This document shows, piece after piece, positions 4,580 to 58,657 of a stretch of DNA of 64,000 nucleotides (position 1 is the stretch's first letter; the number at the start of each line of letters is the position of its first letter). The stretch is from positions 19,794 through 83,793 of the forward strand of contig SVRW01000007.1 in assembly GCA_015064625.1 (NCBI GenBank), in the 5' to 3' direction. Below the pieces are notes generated by a model. The model was not told where the DNA came from. It made no database searches and saw only the letters and a list, made by a program, of their open reading frames with translations. This DNA comes from Oscillospiraceae bacterium (GTDB lineage Bacteria > Bacillota > Clostridia > Oscillospirales > CAG-382). The translations under genes and the position numbers were made by a program.

Positions 4580-4598
4580 AAAAAATCCTTTCTATAAT

Positions 4599-4701
4599 GC
4601 GGAATGAGGAATGCGGAATTCGGAATAAAGGTGGCTTTTCTCCATACTGTTGAAAAGCATATTTTTTTATTCCGCATTACGAATTCCGAATTCTGAATTC
4701 C
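4599..4701. repeat. Mosaic element, locus A: imperfect inverted ATTCCGN heptad arms flanking the conserved core hairpin
   Basis: Left arm 4599-4626 (GCGGAATGAGGAATGCGGAATTCGGAAT). Core hairpin GCTTTTC-N11-GAAAAGC at 4634-4658. Right arm 4669-4701 (ATTCCGC ATTACGA ATTCCGA ATTCTGA ATTCC). TCCTGCC/TCTTGCC-type units follow at 4704-4720. Confidence 0.85.
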
Positions 4702-4709
4702 ACTCCTGC

Positions 4710-5333
4710 CTATCTTGCCTTGTACGTTTCTCCAACGTTTTCAACTATTGCCTTACCGCCTGTCATATCCATAAGGGCAGATTCAACCTCTGTATACTTT
4801 TCGGGCAAAAGGTGAGCGACTAATGTTACGTTCATGCCGAATTCAGCGTTTGTATGGCTGATTTCTCGTTTATCAAGGTAATAAACAACCTTCTGATAAT
4901 CGGAATAGGAAACGGTTATCTCCATTTTTTTGAAAAGGGTGAATGTTACAACTTCACCGTCTTCAACCGCATCCTTTGCCGATGTTGAATATGCACGTAC
5001 AAGTCCTCCGGTGCCAAGAAGTATACCACCGAAATATCGGGTTACAACTATAACACAGTCTGTAATATTTTGCTTTCTCAACGTGTCGAGAAGGGGAAGC
5101 CCCGCTGTTCCGTGAGGCTCACCATCATCGCTGAAACGTTGAATGTTGTTCTCGCGGAGAACGTATGCATATACGTTGTGCCTTGCATCAGAATGCTTTT
5201 CTTTTATTTTTTTGACGAAAGCTACGGCTTCTTCTTCTGTAGCTACGGGAGCGGTATATCCGTAGAAAACGGAACGCTTTTCCGTATACTCGCTGAAGCC
5301 TTCCTTCTTTATTGAAAGGTATTCGCCCTTCAT
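4710..5333 (-). CDS. yigZ: IMPACT/YigZ family protein (UPF0029)
   Basis: RSVFYGY...HSDARHNVYAY...QRFSDDGEPHGTAGLPLL...VVTRYFGGILLGTGGLVRAYS matches the YigZ N-terminal domain. Confidence 0.85.
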   Translation of the reverse strand: MKGEYLSIKKEGFSEYTEKRSVFYGYTAPVATEEEAVAFVKKIKEKHSDARHNVYAYVLRENNIQRFSDDGEPHGTAGLPLLDTLRKQNITDCVIVVTRYFGGILLGTGGLVRAYSTSAKDAVEDGEVVTFTLFKKMEITVSYSDYQKVVYYLDKREISHTNAEFGMNVTLVAHLLPEKYTEVESALMDMTGGKAIVENVGETYKAR

Positions 5334-18676: not shown

Positions 18677-19495
18677 ATGGATCTTTTTAACTCTAATGCA
18701 AACGAATCGGAAAAGTCCTTTTTGAAAAACAGAATGAGGGCAATCTTCGGTTCAACGGAAATGCTGGTTCATGGAATAATAAAAATTATTCTGGCATTGT
18801 TTTTTATCATAGGTGGGTTTTCTTCCCACGTTGCGTGGATGGGTGGCGTTTTCTTTCTGCTTTCTGCTGCATCAACTTTTCTGATGTTTTCCAAAATGCA
18901 GGGAGAGAGAAAATATTCTCCTATAGGCGCAAAGATGTATTCTATACTGACTTTGATAGAAAGTATTTTTATAAAAGTTTATCTTCTTACGTACTGCGTA
19001 TTTCTCCTTACCGCTATGTTTGGCTGGAGCTTATTTGGAAAAGCAACGGAAGCGGCGGCTATTCCCGCTTATAAAATGGGTTTCTTTTGTATTGTTGCAA
19101 TTATTTGTGTTTTAATTGTTTTTTCAATGGTTTCGGTTTACTTAAAGCAACAAAGAAAGTTTGCGGAAAATATTTTTGATTGTGTTGATGCACAGCTTGT
19201 TTTCTTCAGCACGGAGAGAAAATACGCTATGAGAAGCTTTGTATATGCGTTACTCGTTTTTATGTATAACATATTCAAAATGCTTTGCCCGTCCTGGTAC
19301 AGACTTAACGTTCTCCCTGCTAAATTTGCAGAATATCTTGACAGCGGTATAATTATCGAAAAATACGGTGTATTCACTTTTTTGGCGTTACTTCTTTTAA
19401 GCGTTCACTTGGTGCTTTCGGGAAGGCTTGCCGCAAATTATATGATGGTTGTAAGAAAGCTGAAAAAGAAGATTGACGAAAGACACGCAAGTTGA
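18677..19495 (+). CDS. Polytopic membrane protein of unknown function
   Basis: About 6 hydrophobic segments. No family recognised. Confidence 0.5.
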   Translation: MDLFNSNANESEKSFLKNRMRAIFGSTEMLVHGIIKIILALFFIIGGFSSHVAWMGGVFFLLSAASTFLMFSKMQGERKYSPIGAKMYSILTLIESIFIKVYLLTYCVFLLTAMFGWSLFGKATEAAAIPAYKMGFFCIVAIICVLIVFSMVSVYLKQQRKFAENIFDCVDAQLVFFSTERKYAMRSFVYALLVFMYNIFKMLCPSWYRLNVLPAKFAEYLDSGIIIEKYGVFTFLALLLLSVHLVLSGRLAANYMMVVRKLKKKIDERHAS

Positions 19496-19596
19496 GCGAA
19501 GCTCCACTTCGCAATGAAATCCACTTTCAGTGGATGAAATCGCTCAAGGCGGTGAAATTCACCTTCGGTGAATGAAATGTTGCAAAGCAACGTTGA
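19496..19596 (+). repeat. Tandem array of five mini-hairpins with an 18-20-nt period
   Basis: GCGAAG-ctcca-CTTCGC; ATCCACT-ttc-AGTGGAT; ATCGC-tcaag-GCGGT; ATTCACC-ttc-GGTGAAT; ATGTTGC-aaa-GCAACGT. Units are separated by GAA. Stem sequences differ but pairing is maintained. Confidence 0.85.
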
Positions 19597-19623
19597 GGAA
19601 AATTTTCTCCCTGCGGTCGAAAA
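19597..19623 (+). repeat. 26-28-nt box, copy 1 of 5 (GGAAAATTTTCTCCCTGCGGTCGAAAA)
   Basis: Same box as at 38226, 38354, 57841 and 57911. Confidence 0.8.
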
Positions 19624-19681
19624 TATTTTATTATATAATTTTTGTGAGTGCTACCTTTAATAAACGAGAAAGACTTATATC

Positions 19682-20539
19682 ATGAAAATGAATTTTACCA
19701 AAATGCATGGATTGGGGAACGATTATATTTACGTTTATTGCCCTGATAAAGAGCCGTCTGATCCGAATGAAATATCAAGACTTGTATCAAAACGACATTT
19801 TTCCATTGGAAGCGATGGACTTGTTCTTATCTGTTCTTCAAAAATTGCAGATGCGAAAATGCGTATGTTCAATGCCGACGGAAGCGAAGGTGGAATGTGC
19901 GGTAACGCTGTAAGGTGCGTTGGAAAATATCTGTACGATTTTGGCATAATAAAAAAGAAAGAGGTTTCCATAGAAACTCTTTCGGGGATAAAGTATCTGA
20001 CATTAAATATTGGTGATGACGGATTGGTTGAAAGCGTTTCCGTGGATATGGGAAAAGCAAGCTTTGATCCCAAGGTTATTCCCACGGTGTTTGAGGGAGA
20101 GGCTATTGATAAGATCATCACGGTAAAAGGAAAAGAATATAAAATAACTGCGCTGTCTACCGGTAGTGCTCACTGTGTTATCTTTGAAAAGGATGTTTTT
20201 TCTCTTGATATATCTGAAATCGGTCCTTTGTTCGAAAATCACGAAGTGTTCCCGCAACGTGTAAATACCGAATTTATTGAATGTACAGATGAAACAAACA
20301 TCAATATGCGAGTTTGGGAAAAGGGGAGCGGTGAGACGTTGGCTTGCGGAACGGGTGCTTGCGCTTCCGTAGCATCATCTGTTCGCCTTGGAAAATGTAA
20401 AGCAGGCGTTCCCGTTACGGTTCACCTGATAGGCGGAGAGCTTGAAATTATCTGTAATGAGGATTATTCAATAATTATGAGAGGGAAAGCGGAAACGGTT
20501 TTCCACGGCGTTATTGATATCCCCGATGAATTGATGTGA
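19682..20539 (+). CDS. dapF: Diaminopimelate epimerase
   Basis: FTKMHGLGNDYIY, FNADGSEGGMCGNAVRC and GETLACGTGACA (both catalytic Cys motifs). Confidence 0.92.
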   Translation: MKMNFTKMHGLGNDYIYVYCPDKEPSDPNEISRLVSKRHFSIGSDGLVLICSSKIADAKMRMFNADGSEGGMCGNAVRCVGKYLYDFGIIKKKEVSIETLSGIKYLTLNIGDDGLVESVSVDMGKASFDPKVIPTVFEGEAIDKIITVKGKEYKITALSTGSAHCVIFEKDVFSLDISEIGPLFENHEVFPQRVNTEFIECTDETNINMRVWEKGSGETLACGTGACASVASSVRLGKCKAGVPVTVHLIGGELEIICNEDYSIIMRGKAETVFHGVIDIPDELM

Positions 20540-20797: not shown

Positions 20798-21070
20798 TTA
20801 AAACAAATCGCTATGAGTTCCTGTGCGAGAAAGAATCAATACAACTTCTGATTCGTCTATGCGGTATATCAATAACCAATCAGGCAATATATGACATTCT
20901 CTGAATCCGACATAATTTCCTGTCAACGAATGATCTCTATACTTTTCTTCCAATGGAATGTTGCTTGCTAAATTTTCTACTACTTTGTCAAGCAAATCCA
21001 AGTCATATCCTCGTTTCGATATAACCTTCAAGTCTTTTTTGAAGCGATTGGATAATACTATGTCAAGCAT
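20798..21070 (-). CDS. yafQ: Type II toxin, YafQ family (RelE superfamily mRNA interferase)
   Basis: FKKDLKVISKRGYDLDLL...YRDHSLTGNYVGFRECHILPDWLLIYRIDE...LSRTGTHSDLF is the YafQ signature. Confidence 0.88.
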   Translation of the reverse strand: MLDIVLSNRFKKDLKVISKRGYDLDLLDKVVENLASNIPLEEKYRDHSLTGNYVGFRECHILPDWLLIYRIDESEVVLILSRTGTHSDLF

Positions 21071-21359
21071 TTTCTAACACATCTTTTACAGCAGATTTAA
21101 AATCAGGATATCGCTTATATTTTTCGGGATGAGCTTTCATTTCGTAATATTCATTCATCGCTGCTATTGTATCTGCGTTAGGAGTTCTTGTGGATATATC
21201 AAAAGGAATTCTTTGTTCTCTTACCACGGTTTTAGCAAAGATATTAAAAGCTGCACTAACGGAAATCCCAATTTCATTGCAGAAAGCATCGAACGCTTTT
21301 TTTGTTTCTTCGTCAAGGCGAATATTAACATTTGTCTGCGCCATGCGTTTTTCCACCAC
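21063..21359 (-). CDS. dinJ: Type II antitoxin, RelB/DinJ family
   Basis: NVNIRLDEETKKAFDAFCNEIGISVSAAFNIFAKTVVREQRIPF (DinJ RHH). 8-nt overlap with yafQ. Confidence 0.88.
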   Translation of the reverse strand: MVEKRMAQTNVNIRLDEETKKAFDAFCNEIGISVSAAFNIFAKTVVREQRIPFDISTRTPNADTIAAMNEYYEMKAHPEKYKRYPDFKSAVKDVLENA

Positions 21360-21370
21360 CTTTCTATTAT

Positions 21371-21399
21371 ATTATATATAATTTGTATGTATTTGTCAA
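21371..21399 (-). promoter_or_regulatory. Sigma-A promoter of dinJ-yafQ
   Basis: On the minus strand: TTGACA (21399-21394), 17-nt spacer, TATAAT (21376-21371). Confidence 0.7.
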
Positions 21400-21543
21400 T
21401 ATAATTTATGGCGTTTGAAAAACAATTTATAAAATTTTTTTAAATCGGTTGCTTTTTGCGGTTTCAAAAAGCTTCATTTTCTCTTATCTATTCTCTCTCA
21501 TTTTTTATCTGTTCATTCAATAAAAGATTTATTGAATAAGCAT

Positions 21544-21609
21544 CAAGCCTATTATGCTGATGATATATAATTTTACCGATTGGTAAGGTTGCACAAACCA
21601 ATCGGTAAA
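21544..21609. repeat. 66-bp repeat, copy B, directly 3' of the HTH gene stop
   Basis: Identical to copy A except for one TA unit fewer in the (TA)n tract. Confidence 0.95.
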
Positions 21610-21616
21610 TAGTAAT

Positions 21617-21850
21617 TCAATGACTTTCAGGACCAAACTCTACTTTTAATTGCATTCCCATCCCTTCAGCAAGTCGTATTAAGGTACGTAAGGAAGGGTT
21701 AGCGTTTCCCTTTTCCAACTTACTGATATCACCTTGGGCAATTCCTGTAATCTTGGACAATTCCTTTTGTGTCATTCCTGAAGCGTGTCTTGCCTCAATC
21801 AATGCTTGTACAATTTCGTCTACTTCAACAGTATAGGTTGTGTTACTCAT
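21617..21850 (-). CDS. XRE-family helix-turn-helix protein (HigA/antitoxin- or regulator-like)
   Basis: MTQKELSKITGIAQGDISKLEKGNANPSLRTLIRLAEGMG. Start taken at MSNTTY (21850), which overlaps the upstream stop by 8 nt (ATGAGTAA). The ORF track's longer version begins at 21910. Confidence 0.8.
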   Translation of the reverse strand: MSNTTYTVEVDEIVQALIEARHASGMTQKELSKITGIAQGDISKLEKGNANPSLRTLIRLAEGMGMQLKVEFGPESH

Positions 21851-22061
21851 CGGTTCCAATGCTCTCCCAATCGATGTCTTCTGCATCAACGTAACCGCTT
21901 TTTTCTGCATCCTCTATTTTCTTTGCTTCCTCTGCGGTAACTTTAGTAAAATCCGGATCCCAAGCAAGAACTAATTTTTTGATAAACTCGTAAGCAAACG
22001 CCTTGTCTGCTTCTGGAAGTACATCCATTAAGCGTGCTGCTTCAATTACAATACTTGACAT
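21843..22061 (-). CDS. Small acidic protein (72 aa), candidate antitoxin/adaptor of a three-gene TA module
   Basis: AGGAGGAG RBS about 7 nt upstream of the ATG at 22061. Acidic C-terminus (EDAEKSGYVDAEDIDWESIGTDE). No family recognised. Confidence 0.6.
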   Translation of the reverse strand: MSSIVIEAARLMDVLPEADKAFAYEFIKKLVLAWDPDFTKVTAEEAKKIEDAEKSGYVDAEDIDWESIGTDE

Positions 22062-22074
22062 ATAAGACTCCTCC

Positions 22075-22344
22075 TTATTTGTATATATCTCCGCGATTGC
22101 CAATATCGATTACAAAGCTGATCTCTACCGTTTCTTCATTTTCGTGTCTATAGATAATTCTCCACGATCCAACACGGAGTCGTTTCCTTCCGTCGTTGTA
22201 GCCCTGCATCGTTTTGATATCTCCAACTGGCGGATTATAAGTCAATCCCGTAATAGCATCACGGATTCTACCAACAGATTTTTTGTCTAATTTTTACAGA
22301 AATTTCAGTGCATCTTTCGAATATCTGATTTTAATTTCATTCAT
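22075..22344 (-). pseudogene. RelE/ParE-family toxin gene interrupted by an in-frame TAA at codon 17
   Basis: My minus-strand translation: MNEIKIRYSKDALKFL*KLDKKSVGRIRDAITGLTYNPPVGDIKTMQGYNDGRKRLRVGSWRIIYRHENEETVEISFVIDIGNRGDIYK. The stop is at 22294-22296. The LRVGxxRIIY...IGxRxDIY core is typical of RelE/ParE. Missing from the ORF track because of the stop. Confidence 0.85.
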
Positions 22345-38060: not shown

Positions 38061-38128
38061 ATATTTGAAAAAAGTTATCTTTCCTCGCTTCGCTCGAAAA
38101 TCATTTATATAAAATATTAGTCTAATTC

Positions 38129-38170
38129 AATGCTCAATTCAAGGTTCAACGCCCCGAATTGAGCATTTTT
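38129..38170 (+). terminator. MFS terminator, which is also the hairpin module of the mosaic element family (locus B)
   Basis: ATGCTCAATTC-N15-GAATTGAGCAT followed by TTTTAT. The GCTCNATTCAAGG...CCCCGAANNGAGC core is homologous to the hairpins at 58118-58149 and 58533-58564. Confidence 0.75.
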
Positions 38171-38192
38171 ATATTCCGCATTCCGCTTTTAA

Positions 38193-38220
38193 ATTGAAAA
38201 TGGAAAATGGAAAATTGAAA
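38193..38220. repeat. ATTGAAA/ATGGAAA heptad array (4 units)
   Basis: ATTGAAA ATGGAAA ATGGAAA ATTGAAA. The same heptads occur at 57878-57905. Confidence 0.85.
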
Positions 38221-38225
38221 GTTAA

Positions 38226-38251
38226 GGAAATTTTTCTCCCGTTGGTCGAAA
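38226..38251 (+). repeat. 26-28-nt box, copy 2
   Basis: GGAAATTTTTCTCCCGTTGGTCGAAA. Confidence 0.9.
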
Positions 38252-38257
38252 CCATAA

Positions 38258-38348
38258 GGCAAGAGAGAATAGGCAAGAGGGAAGAGGCAGGAGGCAAGAG
38301 GGAAGAGGCAGGAGGCAAGAGGGAAGAGGCAGGAGGCAAGAGGCAGGA
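38258..38348. repeat. Thirteen GGNANGA heptads forming a 21-nt higher-order tandem repeat
   Basis: (GGCAAGA GGGAAGA GGCAGGA) three times plus partial units. This creates four AGGAGG strings on the plus strand. The array is bracketed by box copies 2 and 3. Confidence 0.9.
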
Positions 38349-38353
38349 GGGGA

Positions 38354-38381
38354 GGAAATTTTTCTCCCGTTGGTCGAAAAA
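38354..38381 (+). repeat. 26-28-nt box, copy 3
   Basis: GGAAATTTTTCTCCCGTTGGTCGAAAAA, identical to copy 2 over 26 nt. Confidence 0.9.
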
Positions 38382-38395
38382 TATTTTATATAATT

Positions 38396-38483
38396 GCTTT
38401 TCGAACGCAGAGAGAAAAGCTACCTTTATTCCGAATTCCGCATTCCGAATTCCGCATTCCGAATTCCGCATTCCGCATTCCGC
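38396..38483 (+). repeat. Conserved core hairpin plus eight ATTCCGN heptads
   Basis: GCTTTTC-gaacgcagaga-GAAAAGC (38396-38420), TACCTTT, then ATTCCGA/ATTCCGC eight times (38428-38483). The array ends 8 nt before the RadC-like stop codon. Confidence 0.9.
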
Positions 38484-38491
38484 ATTTTACT

Positions 38492-57820: not shown

Positions 57821-57840
57821 GACGCGAAGGAAAGAGGAAA

Positions 57841-57867
57841 GGAAATTTTTCTTCCGCCGATCGAAAA
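57841..57867 (+). repeat. 26-28-nt box, copy 4
   Basis: GGAAATTTTTCTTCCGCCGATCGAAAA. Confidence 0.8.
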
Positions 57868-57877
57868 ACGTTATTTA

Positions 57878-58015
57878 ATTGAAAATTGAAAATGGAAAGT
57901 TGAAAATTATGGTAATTTTTCTCCCACCGGTCGAAAAATAAATTCTTGTTTACCCTTACCTCTTGCCTTTGCATCAGCCTTTACAATTTTCAACTTTCAA
58001 CTTTCAATTTCCAAT
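57878..58015. repeat. Inverted heptad arms enclosing box copy 5
   Basis: ATTGAAA ATTGAAA ATGGAAA GTTGAAA (57878-57905). Box GGTAATTTTTCTCCCACCGGTCGAAAA (57911-57937). Inverted TTTCAAC TTTCAAC TTTCAAT TTCCAAT (57988-58015). Confidence 0.85.
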
Positions 58016-58073
58016 TTCCCATCGCTCCTTTGATATTGTATCATGCAAGGTGTGTCAGTTATCACACATTTTT

Positions 58074-58150
58074 AATTCGGAATTCGGAATGCGGAATTCG
58101 GAATAAAAAAAGCTCGGTTCGGGGTTTTACCCTTGAATCGAGCGTTTTTT
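58074..58150 (+). terminator. Left inverted arm of locus C: AATTCGG/AATGCGG heptads plus a terminator-like hairpin
   Basis: Heptads at 58074-58104. AAAAAAA-GCTCGGTTCGGGG-tttt-ACCCTTGAATCGAGC-GTTTTTT: a 13-bp stem whose non-Watson-Crick pairs are G-T on the plus strand. Likely terminator of the CBM9-like gene. Confidence 0.7.
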
Positions 58151-58195
58151 GATTGTTTTATTTGTGAATGTTTTAGTTTATTTTTCGATAATTTA

Positions 58196-58277
58196 TTTTT
58201 CGAACGCAGTGAGAAAAATTTCCATTATTCCGCATTCCGCATTCCGCATTGAAAAAGTTCCGCATTCCGCATTATGC
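58196..58277 (+). repeat. Conserved core hairpin plus ATTCCGC heptads (locus C)
   Basis: TTTTTC-gaacgcagtga-GAAAAA (58196-58218; same 11-nt loop as locus B with one difference). ATTCCGC three times (58227-58247), then further units to 58277. Confidence 0.85.
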
Positions 58278-58278
58278 A

Positions 58279-58392
58279 TAGGTTTAGGTTTAGGTTTAGG
58301 ATTAGGTTTAGGATTAGGATTAGGATTAGGATTAGGTTTAGGATTAGGATTAGGATTAGGATTAGGTTTAGGATTAGGATTAGGTTTAGGAT
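58279..58392. repeat. Nineteen-unit hexamer array TAGGTT/TAGGAT
   Basis: Unit order by variant base is TTT A T AAAA T AAAA T AA T A, which partly gives a 30-nt higher-order period. Confidence 0.95.
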
Positions 58393-58530
58393 TACTGAGC
58401 AAAAATTAGCAAAAATAGCATTTGCTACCATTTGCTGTTTTTGCAATGGTTTACTATTTAACTTTTGCACTTGCTGTTTTTGCTCACATTAGTTCGAATT
58501 TGCTGTTTTATTATGACTTCAAAATAGATA

Positions 58531-58647
58531 AAGCTCGATTCAAGGGTAAATCCTCGAACCAAGCTTTATTATTTCGAATTACGAATTACGCATTCCGAAT
58601 TGAACAAGTTACGCATTCCGAATTACTCCTGCCTCCTGCCTCTTGCC
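58531..58647 (-). terminator. Right inverted arm of locus C: hairpin plus ATTNCGN heptads plus TCCTGCC/TCTTGCC heptads (likely murA terminator region)
   Basis: The reverse complement of 58531-58601 aligns with 58074-58150 (about 80 percent by eye). The hairpin mismatches become G-U only on the minus strand, where TTATCTATTTT follows. Heptads TCCTGCC TCCTGCC TCTTGCC at 58627-58647. Confidence 0.65.
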
Positions 58648-58657
58648 TTGGCGAAGC

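Follow-up and report, generated by a model that had tools for sequence, protein, structure and literature searches.

A 64-kb stretch of DNA from an Oscillospiraceae bacterium (64,000 nucleotides of contig SVRW01000007.1; referred to below as the window) contains, between two genes of an operon, a tandem array of five small hairpins that belongs to the Gut-1 RNA family (Rfam RF01706). The upstream gene is an open reading frame (ORF; 18677–19495, + strand) for a 272-aa membrane protein to which the Pfam scan assigned no family, and the downstream gene, on the same strand as the array, is dapF (19682–20539, + strand), which encodes diaminopimelate epimerase (DAP epimerase, PF01678). The TGA stop codon of the ORF (19493–19495) abuts the first hairpin, hp0 (19496–19512, + strand; GCGAAG-ctcca-CTTCGC), which has a 6-bp stem, follows the stop without any gap and lies outside the Rfam model. 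Hairpins equivalent to hp0 also directly follow the stop codon in other Gut-1 arrays, for example TAA-GCGCGCTTACGCGCGC. After hp0 and the sequence AAUGAA come four units of the form AU-stem-loop-stem'-(A/G)U, all on the + strand: unit 1 (19519–19535; AU-CCACU-uuc-AGUGG-AU), unit 2 (19539–19553; AU-CGC(U)-caa-(G)GCG-GU with U·G pairs, ATCGC-tcaag-GCGGT in DNA), unit 3 (19557–19573; AU-UCACC-uuc-GGUGA-AU), and unit 4 (19577–19593; AU-GUUGC-aaa-GCAAC-GU), the last of which lies past the end of the three-hairpin Rfam model. The stems are unrelated to one another, the closing pairs are A-U or U·G, and the repeats are regularly spaced at 18–20 nt. GAA had been proposed as the joint between all units in the original prediction, a description made from the sequence alone. 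This is correct among units 1–4, but hp0 is linked to unit 1 by AATGAA, and unit 4 is followed by TGA.

Downstream of unit 4, the array continues into a 27-nt box (19597–19623, + strand; GGAAAATTTTCTCCCTGCGGTCGAAAA), a lineage-specific module of the mosaic repeats found elsewhere in the window that could form a weak hairpin, and then into an AT-rich tail (19624–19660, + strand). The tail includes the palindrome ATTATATAAT (19630–19639, + strand), a truncated inverted copy of the box, and closes with the end module GCTACCTTTA (19650–19659, + strand), which is common to the loci at 38346–38436 and 4606–4676. Together, these modules form a block of ~165 nt (19496–19660, + strand). RNA folding of 19496–19626 returned the five hairpins and a weak box hairpin as the minimum free energy (MFE) structure (−40.2 kcal/mol; z = −3.0, with 0 of 200 shuffles equally stable), and each array hairpin also folds alone when the units are treated one by one. 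Inclusion of the last ORF codons brings hp0 into competition with an alternative hairpin, GAGC-GAA-GCUC. Sequence and fold thus agree with the originally predicted array of five hairpins beginning at the first base after the stop, and the in-silico folding that had been suggested as a check reproduces all five of them. The pattern TGAAAT-N9–20-TGAAAT-N9–20-TGAAAT occurs at a single place in the window, this array, and in none of 100 shuffles. A CRISPR array can be ruled out: it would have identical repeats of 23–50 nt with unique, non-palindromic spacers of similar length between them, whereas here a constant part of only 7 nt alternates with a 10–14-nt palindrome that varies.

Comparison of the whole window with Rfam matched 19512–19583 (+ strand) to the full Gut-1 model (positions 1–77) at 57.7 bits (gathering score 50; E = 8e-9), and no other family matched at the gathering score. 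When 19300–19800 was searched with E up to 10, only chance-level matches beyond Gut-1 were found and no riboswitch or leader model, in line with the predicted lack of a known riboswitch shape. Gut-1 was described from human-gut metagenome reads (Weinberg et al, 2010; Genome Biol 11:R31, PMC2864571) and rated an RNA with certainty and unlikely to be cis-regulatory; the supplement's sole comment restricts its occurrence to gut environmental sequence. As described there, it was present in no sequenced organism and had no function assigned (PMC2864571). Rfam gives its type as small RNA (sRNA), and full-text literature searches found no later work on Gut-1 since 2010. The RF01706 consensus, CAaUGAAAU-hp-GUGAAAU-hp-GUGAAA-hp-UGAAAU (hp, hairpin), has the geometry of the window array. 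Both share the consensus, A-U and U·G closing pairs, the GAA linker and variable stems, and both seem to come from uncultured gut Clostridia, whereas the window copy has five hairpins instead of three, is AT-richer, uses AUGAAAU more commonly than GUGAAAU and is followed by a lineage-specific box. A further difference is that Gut-1 was described from metagenome reads as a probable sRNA, while the window copy is an insertion in an operon of a metagenome-assembled genome (MAG). At least three consecutive variable-stem hairpins with A-U or U·G closing pairs and GAA joints, which characterize Gut-1, are present in the window. An independent sRNA gene is not what we found here, as the array begins after a stop codon within an operon and has neither a promoter nor a terminator on the + strand. 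Since the sRNA type is an annotation of the family and not a structural criterion, membership in Gut-1 stands. The array is thus a true Gut-1 copy, from a family that had been catalogued before, and not a new kind of element.

Comparison with relatives showed how the block relates to its neighbours. For the upstream 272-aa protein we found 18 homologues, including a 100% identical cluster named as a Ruminococcaceae/Oscillospiraceae MAG protein. The gene order ddl, S-methyltransferase gene, DnaD-like gene, membrane-protein gene, dapF is kept in contigs (designated here by L numbers) L436, L437/L438 and L439, in which the flanking protein is 69–72% identical and the membrane-protein gene lies 12–18 nt from dapF. 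Alignment of the junctions shows that the ~165 nt from hp0 to GCTACCTTTAA are missing from these relatives, in which the 27-nt box was not found either, and that the original junction, TAA-ACGA followed by a ribosome-binding site (RBS), is still recognizable in the window at 19661–19681. On these alignments, the modular block is evidently an insertion in one Ruminococcaceae/Oscillospiraceae lineage of gut or rumen Clostridia. The notion of an ancestral regulatory region of dapF or of the upstream gene is therefore not sustained, given that syntenic relatives lack the block and have a 12–18-nt junction. A closer relative (85%; L435) carries the block, and its array scores 59.3 bits against RF01706. 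It differs from the window by one loop change in hp0, loop changes in unit 3, replacement of the inner U·G pair of unit 2 by C-G, and, in unit 4, replacement of the closing U·G pair by U-A together with a loop change from AAA to TTT on an unchanged stem. This flip of the unit 4 loop to its complement suggests a palindrome event at the DNA level. Strain-level contigs (L001–L008) are identical across the region and uninformative. A second case of a filled and an empty site is provided by an array behind livF in L246, where relatives that are 81–90% identical contain plain terminators instead.

To place the window copy within its family, members were sought in one metagenome scan and one viral-contig scan using a linker pattern and then a hairpin-spacer filter. 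On viral contigs the loose linker pattern returned mostly chance or simple-repeat matches, and a tighter pattern combined with the hairpin filter was used. This sample, which is not a census, yielded at least ~50 further distinct Gut-1 arrays, which lie in gut metagenomes and on prophage contigs, and all 20 arrays passed to Rfam scored above the Gut-1 threshold. The search for further arrays proposed with the original prediction thus produced many, and its counterpart, that no additional instances exist, does not apply. Members come from human-gut assemblies, from IMG/VR viral and prophage contigs and from a JGI metagenome sample that contains the window's genome, and the window's own flanking protein from a Ruminococcaceae/Oscillospiraceae MAG. 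BLAST against GenBank phages gave no match for the window block, a tRNA-linked array pair or the phage fragment L386 (both described below). A contig scan based on DapF returned best matches of at most 61% identity, and no (G/A)TGAWAT hairpin array was found within 10 kb of dapF at 80 DapF loci. The sole Gut-1-like array there is a four-hairpin array with a GTGAAGT linker on the minus strand in Christensenella sp. UBA3798 (L186, 2615–2699), which the TGAWAT pattern missed.

Among the matches listed, arrays contain 3–5 repeats, and 543 of 550 stem pairs (98.7%) in 102 distinct units from other loci are Watson-Crick pairs. Among these matches, the innermost stem pair is C-G in 80 of 96 units, and the base before TGAWAT is G in 164 cases, A in 30 and T in one (G or A in 194 of 195), so that a U·G or U-A closing pair is retained. 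Linkers vary by lineage (GUGAAAU, GUGAUAU, AUGAUAU, and GUGAAGU in the Christensenella MAG), and across lineages the heptamer (GTGAAAT, GTGATAT, ATGATAT or GTGAAGT) is far better conserved than any stem. MAFFT placed 5 of 19 sequences out of register, and covariation was scored on the well-aligned third hairpin alone. In these 19 family members, 99.2% of the cells of hairpin 3 are paired; double-sided changes number 28, compared with 8.5 ± 2.0 in shuffles (0 of 500 reach 28), and pairing drops to 17–52% once the partner columns are slid. Homologous arrays at other loci have common unit types in equal order and differ by gains or losses of whole units. These alignments indicate that differing stems with retained geometry, closing pair and linker reflect selection on pairing. 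Selection on structure had been proposed originally as covariation between the paralogous units of the window; the pairing is indeed selected, as hairpin 3 and the Watson-Crick counts attest, but part of the apparent covariation comes from different unit types having been copied together. The asymmetry between G·U and A·C was considered as a strand test and is uninformative, since the stems are almost purely Watson-Crick.

The positions of Gut-1 arrays are biased and include two layouts. In the first, solo arrays begin 0–4 nt after a co-directional stop codon, as in L210, L245, L246, L264, L292, L307, L386 (twice), L435 and the window, and the genes that precede them are unrelated to one another. 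L246 and L307 contain an intrinsic terminator on the same strand ~35 nt past the array, and the array, lying between stop codon and terminator, is therefore in the 3' untranslated region (UTR). In the second layout, the terminator of a tRNA gene is succeeded at once by a forward array and then by an inverted one; such inverted partner arrays are already visible in the flanking sequences published with the family (Weinberg et al, 2010; PMC2864571). Prophage integrases of two unrelated classes (tyrosine and large serine) are often found near the tRNA-linked arrays. We considered the arrays as arm-type sites of integrases at tRNA-linked att sites and rejected this reading, because two integrase classes without relation to each other are involved and many arrays lack an integrase in their vicinity. 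In several lineages, a gene of the PF05635 family (23S_rRNA_IVP/four-helix-bundle) adjoins the tRNA-linked array pairs (L232, 878–1225; L279, 6510–6857, minus strand; L412, 1–390, minus strand; also L408 and L428), and in L232 this gene is flanked by direct repeats of a terminator plus a half-array. A G+C-rich lineage (L210, L216, L245, L264 and L307) contains further dispersed modules downstream of its arrays, namely GGTGAGCGCGGGAGATTGTAAAGC, the terminator GGGGACGGGAAGCCGTCCCC and CACCAAAAGGCTCCCC-N4-GGGGAGCTG...CTGAGGGGTT, which point to a separate mosaic vocabulary in that lineage.

Gut-1-like arrays also occur between phage genes. The fragment L386 (1–4487; IMG/VR contig 3300031555_007141) encodes phage head proteins, including an SPP1-type portal, a scaffold and a P22-type coat protein, and its intergenic gaps of 300–390 nt, which are unusually large for a phage morphogenesis operon, each begin with a forward array. 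Two complete gaps run from the stop codon through a forward array, other repeat modules and an inverted array to the RBS and the start codon; a third has the forward array at its beginning, and the contig ends before completion. An inverted array before the next start is also present upstream of the portal gene, and two further modules, GGTACACGCTNANGCGTGATTGGA and GTAGGGGCGGTCATTGATCGCC, recur in the fragment. Folding of whole gaps pairs the forward and inverted arrays into a fold-back structure, with z = −5.2 for L386 and z = −5.6 for a tRNA-linked pair in L319.

Within the window, the single Gut-1 array is accompanied by three other mosaic loci. The original prediction had connected the array to this mosaic family through the box, and the connection is confirmed by shared modules: the Gut-1 locus has the box, an AT-rich segment and the GCTACCTTTA end in common with these mosaics, and the loci with which it shares modules are those at 4606, 38346, 57905 and 58176. 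Two box copies are found in the window at up to three mismatches, and a looser pattern gives five (19603, 38360, 57847 and 57917 on the + strand, 58217 on the minus strand) plus degenerate copies. Locus (a) (4596–4722) lies between ordinary genes (UPF0029 and rhaM). Read on the minus strand, it consists of a stop codon, an array of AGGCAAG type, a heptamer arm of GGAATTC type, an inverted box with GCCACCTTTA, a complementary (ATTCCGM) arm, an RBS and the start of the next gene, which is the layout of the L386 gaps but with hairpin-less arms. Locus (c) (38100–38491), between convergent genes, is composed of a terminator-like module, heptamer arrays, a box, (AGGCAAG)x13, a box, an inverted box and (ATTCCGM)x8. 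Locus (d) (57821–58657) contains boxes, a (TGAAAAT) heptamer arm with its inverted counterpart, a terminator-like hairpin flanked by (AATTCGG) arms, and more arrays; at 58279–58394 it includes (TAGGAT/TAGGTT)x19, telomere-like in appearance, followed by repeats of AGCAAAAAT type. Forward and inverted arrays of tandem heptamers (AATGCGG/AATTCGG and their complement, TGAAAAT, AGGCAAG) make up the three intergenic mosaics, along with copies of the box and a recurring terminator-like hairpin (GCTCGATTCAAGG...CCCCGAACCGAGC). The mosaics lie directly against stop codons that belong to ordinary genes (UPF0029, rhaM, MFS, RadC, CBM9 and EPSP-synthase family). Outside the repeats, a variable island downstream of dapF (20798–22245) encodes a YafQ/ParE-type toxin, a RelB antitoxin, a helix–turn–helix protein and small minus-strand ORFs; its content differs among the syntenic relatives, which contain, for instance, a GH123 gene or a PP-binding gene.

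On the + strand, we found no sigma-70-like promoter and no terminator between 19496 and 19682, and 19300–19800 has no intrinsic terminator site and no U-tract after any hairpin. The array is thus not a classical terminator on this strand, as had been predicted. On the minus strand, AUUUCA follows each hairpin, and there is one weak terminator-like match. The box together with TATAAT was considered as an outward promoter for dapF and rejected, since no sigma-70-like site was found; fits to SigH- or extracytoplasmic function (ECF)-type consensus sequences were unconvincing and are not claimed. The lack of a + strand promoter or terminator, combined with the operon junction in relatives, suggests read-through of the array in the GUGAAAU orientation. 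Computed with RNA parameters, 91 of 96 units among the matches listed are more stable on the GUGAAAU strand (−7.4 versus −5.5 kcal/mol), whereas DNA energy parameters give no strand difference for these units.

We lean, with moderate confidence, towards seeing the block as a modular repeat of the dispersed kind whose action, if it has any, would be that of stable RNA hairpins placed between two cistrons. Its modules are, in order, the stop-proximal hairpin, four units joined by (G/A)UGAAAU, the 27-nt box and the AT-rich tail ending in GCTACCTTTA. It was inserted into a former 12–18-nt junction of the operon ddl ... DnaD-like gene, membrane-protein gene, dapF, and would be co-transcribed within the operon mRNA, where the lack of U-tracts after the hairpins in + orientation should keep it from terminating transcription. 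Placed there, the hairpins could protect the upstream cistron against exonuclease attack at its 3' end, lie next to the ribosome as it terminates, and break the coupling between the cistrons. The conserved heptamer would presumably be read by some factor, which might be an RNA-binding protein or a protein responsible for spreading the element. Repetitive extragenic palindromic (REP) sequences and bacterial interspersed mosaic elements (BIMEs) of enterobacteria, as well as the BOX elements of pneumococci, act as intercistronic RNA blocks of this kind.

Several points weigh against an intercistronic RNA block. We infer its transcription, its effect on the mRNA and its mode of spread. Internal G·U pairs account for only 2 of 550 stem pairs among the matches listed; this rarity and the loop flip in unit 4 of L435 look like the behaviour of a DNA-level palindrome and not like RNA evolution. 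Moreover, ~70% of the units in the same matches have 5'-U-N-(N)-C-3' loops, which read GNA or GNNA on the other strand. GNA and GNNA loops are unusually stable, a hint of possible selection on the complementary strand. Given the few G·U pairs and the loop bias, selection may act on either strand and on either RNA or DNA. The junction alignment separates filled from empty sites clearly, but it defined neither terminal inverted repeats nor a clean target-site duplication for the inserted block; the block junctions (AGTTGA/GCGAAG ... CCTTTAA/TAAACGAG, with slashes at the borders) show no convincing duplication, and the window copy has no inverted right arm. A Pfam scan of selected flanking ORFs found no transposase or partner protein, and no reader of the conserved heptamer was found. 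Finally, the element could be selectively neutral.

A broader interpretation, which we put forward as a tentative possibility, is that Gut-1 arrays are not sRNA genes but the arms of undescribed modular fold-back elements in gut Clostridia as well as in their phages. In its complete form, such an element would extend from the stop codon through a forward array, core modules (box, terminator) and an inverted array to the RBS and the next start. The arms would pair via their complementary heptamers, so that one large branched structure might bracket or process each cistron, and a factor recognizing (G/A)UGAAAU beside a hairpin could spread the element. The hairpin-less heptamer arrays of the window would then be sister types of arm.

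Other explanations have to be weighed against an intercistronic block of RNA hairpins. It seems unlikely, though not to the same degree as for the explanations below, that the arrays are primarily DNA substrates, in which the heptamer and a hairpin of arbitrary sequence are read by a structure-specific enzyme (an HUH- or RAYT (REP-associated tyrosine transposase)-like transposase or another recombinase), the element is copied or moved via single-stranded DNA, and RNA effects are by-products. Insertion polymorphism at two loci, the gains and losses of whole units between homologous arrays and the fold-back structures formed by forward and inverted arrays are consistent with such a substrate, and so are almost purely Watson-Crick stems (98.7%) with hardly any G·U, the one loop flipped to its complement, loops whose complementary strand reads C(GNA)G or C(GNNA)G, and a heptamer conserved across lineages far above any stem. 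However, no transposase was found by Pfam beside any array among the selected flanking ORFs, and the integrases near tRNA-linked arrays, being of two unrelated classes, are best explained by prophages sharing tRNA sites. The strand difference disappears with DNA energy parameters, the U·G closing pair and the changes from U·G to C-G or U-A fit an RNA on the GUGAAAU strand, and the units are direct tandem repeats without the alternation typical of BIMEs.

The nearly invariant linker between freely changing stems, the regular 18–20-nt spacing and the 3–5 repeats per array would also suit a protein-docking RNA, in which hairpins space (G/A)UGAAAU or GAA for an oligomeric RNA-binding protein, either as a sponge or as a regulated leader, in the way that CsrB/RsmZ present GGA and the trp leader presents (G/U)AG to TRAP. 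We consider this improbable, as the arrays lie behind unrelated genes, behind tRNA terminators and between phage head genes, and therefore have no common regulated gene; in addition, the array is an insertion at the window locus, hairpin-less heptamer arrays take the equal position in sister elements, and no candidate protein was found. Even less credit can be given to a free-standing, trans-acting sRNA, the type assigned by Rfam and compatible with the published rating as a certain RNA that is unlikely to regulate in cis (Weinberg et al, 2010; PMC2864571). That call rested on short metagenome contigs without the present context, in which the array begins at an operon-internal stop codon with no + strand promoter before it and no terminator after it, and elsewhere lies between a stop codon and the terminator of that same gene. 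The location directly upstream of dapF on the same strand might, lastly, point to a cis-regulatory leader or attenuator of dapF that responds to a ligand or a protein. This is the explanation to which we assign the lowest probability, close to dismissal: it is largely refuted by the empty sites in relatives, in which an intact dapF follows 12–18 nt behind the upstream gene, and the array matches no riboswitch or leader model, offers no alternative between terminator and antiterminator, and occurs in the same type behind many unrelated genes.

Since 2010, Gut-1 has remained an orphan motif described in one sentence, and the window copy in an assembled operon gives the family its first usable context. 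This context comprises relatives with empty sites, a strict position after stop codons, inverted partner arrays and an occurrence between phage head genes. It turns an unknown sRNA into testable options, a mobile intercistronic cassette of RNA structure or a DNA substrate of some enzyme. For annotation, it means that such arrays in Oscillospiraceae/Ruminococcaceae MAGs would be treated as dispersed repeats and not as regulators of neighbouring genes. Should the element be merely a neutral passenger, the finding is an ordinary one.

Among known repeat systems, REPs stabilize upstream mRNA and affect translation when they are close to a stop codon. Gut-1 shares with the REP/BIME elements of enterobacteria and pseudomonads (PMC2817692) short extragenic palindromes with a single-stranded tag beside the hairpin, clustering with other modules into mosaics, and a 3' UTR or intercistronic position behind unrelated genes. 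The tag itself is different, GTAG in REP/BIME and (G/A)TGAAAT next to unrelated stems in Gut-1, so that the arrays do not carry the REP tag. Moreover, REPs all repeat a single palindrome and alternate in orientation, whereas Gut-1 units are tandem in the same orientation and only whole arrays are inverted, and REP/BIME elements are associated with RAYT, while no Y1 transposase was found by Pfam among the selected flanking ORFs scanned here.

Like Gut-1 arrays, the BOX elements of Streptococcus pneumoniae are intergenic and predicted to form a stable RNA structure; their organization is boxA-(boxB)n-boxC. BOX and Gut-1 have in common a modular head, tandem middle and tail, a variable number of middle units and an unexplained mechanism of spread, but there is no sequence relationship between them, and boxB consists of 45-nt copies of a single sequence whereas Gut-1 units measure 15–20 nt and have unrelated stems. 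Miniature inverted-repeat transposable elements (MITEs) and fold-back elements, such as the Correia elements of Neisseria, resemble Gut-1 in their presence/absence polymorphism at conserved gene junctions, and complete Gut-1 elements have inverted arms that fold back and, in some copies, terminators, as these elements do. However, MITEs have simple terminal inverted repeats where Gut-1 has tandem-array arms, of which the window copy contains only one. Intrinsic terminators, finally, are likewise G+C-rich hairpins directly downstream of a gene, but the window array has no U-tract on the + strand, and the operon must read through it to reach dapF.

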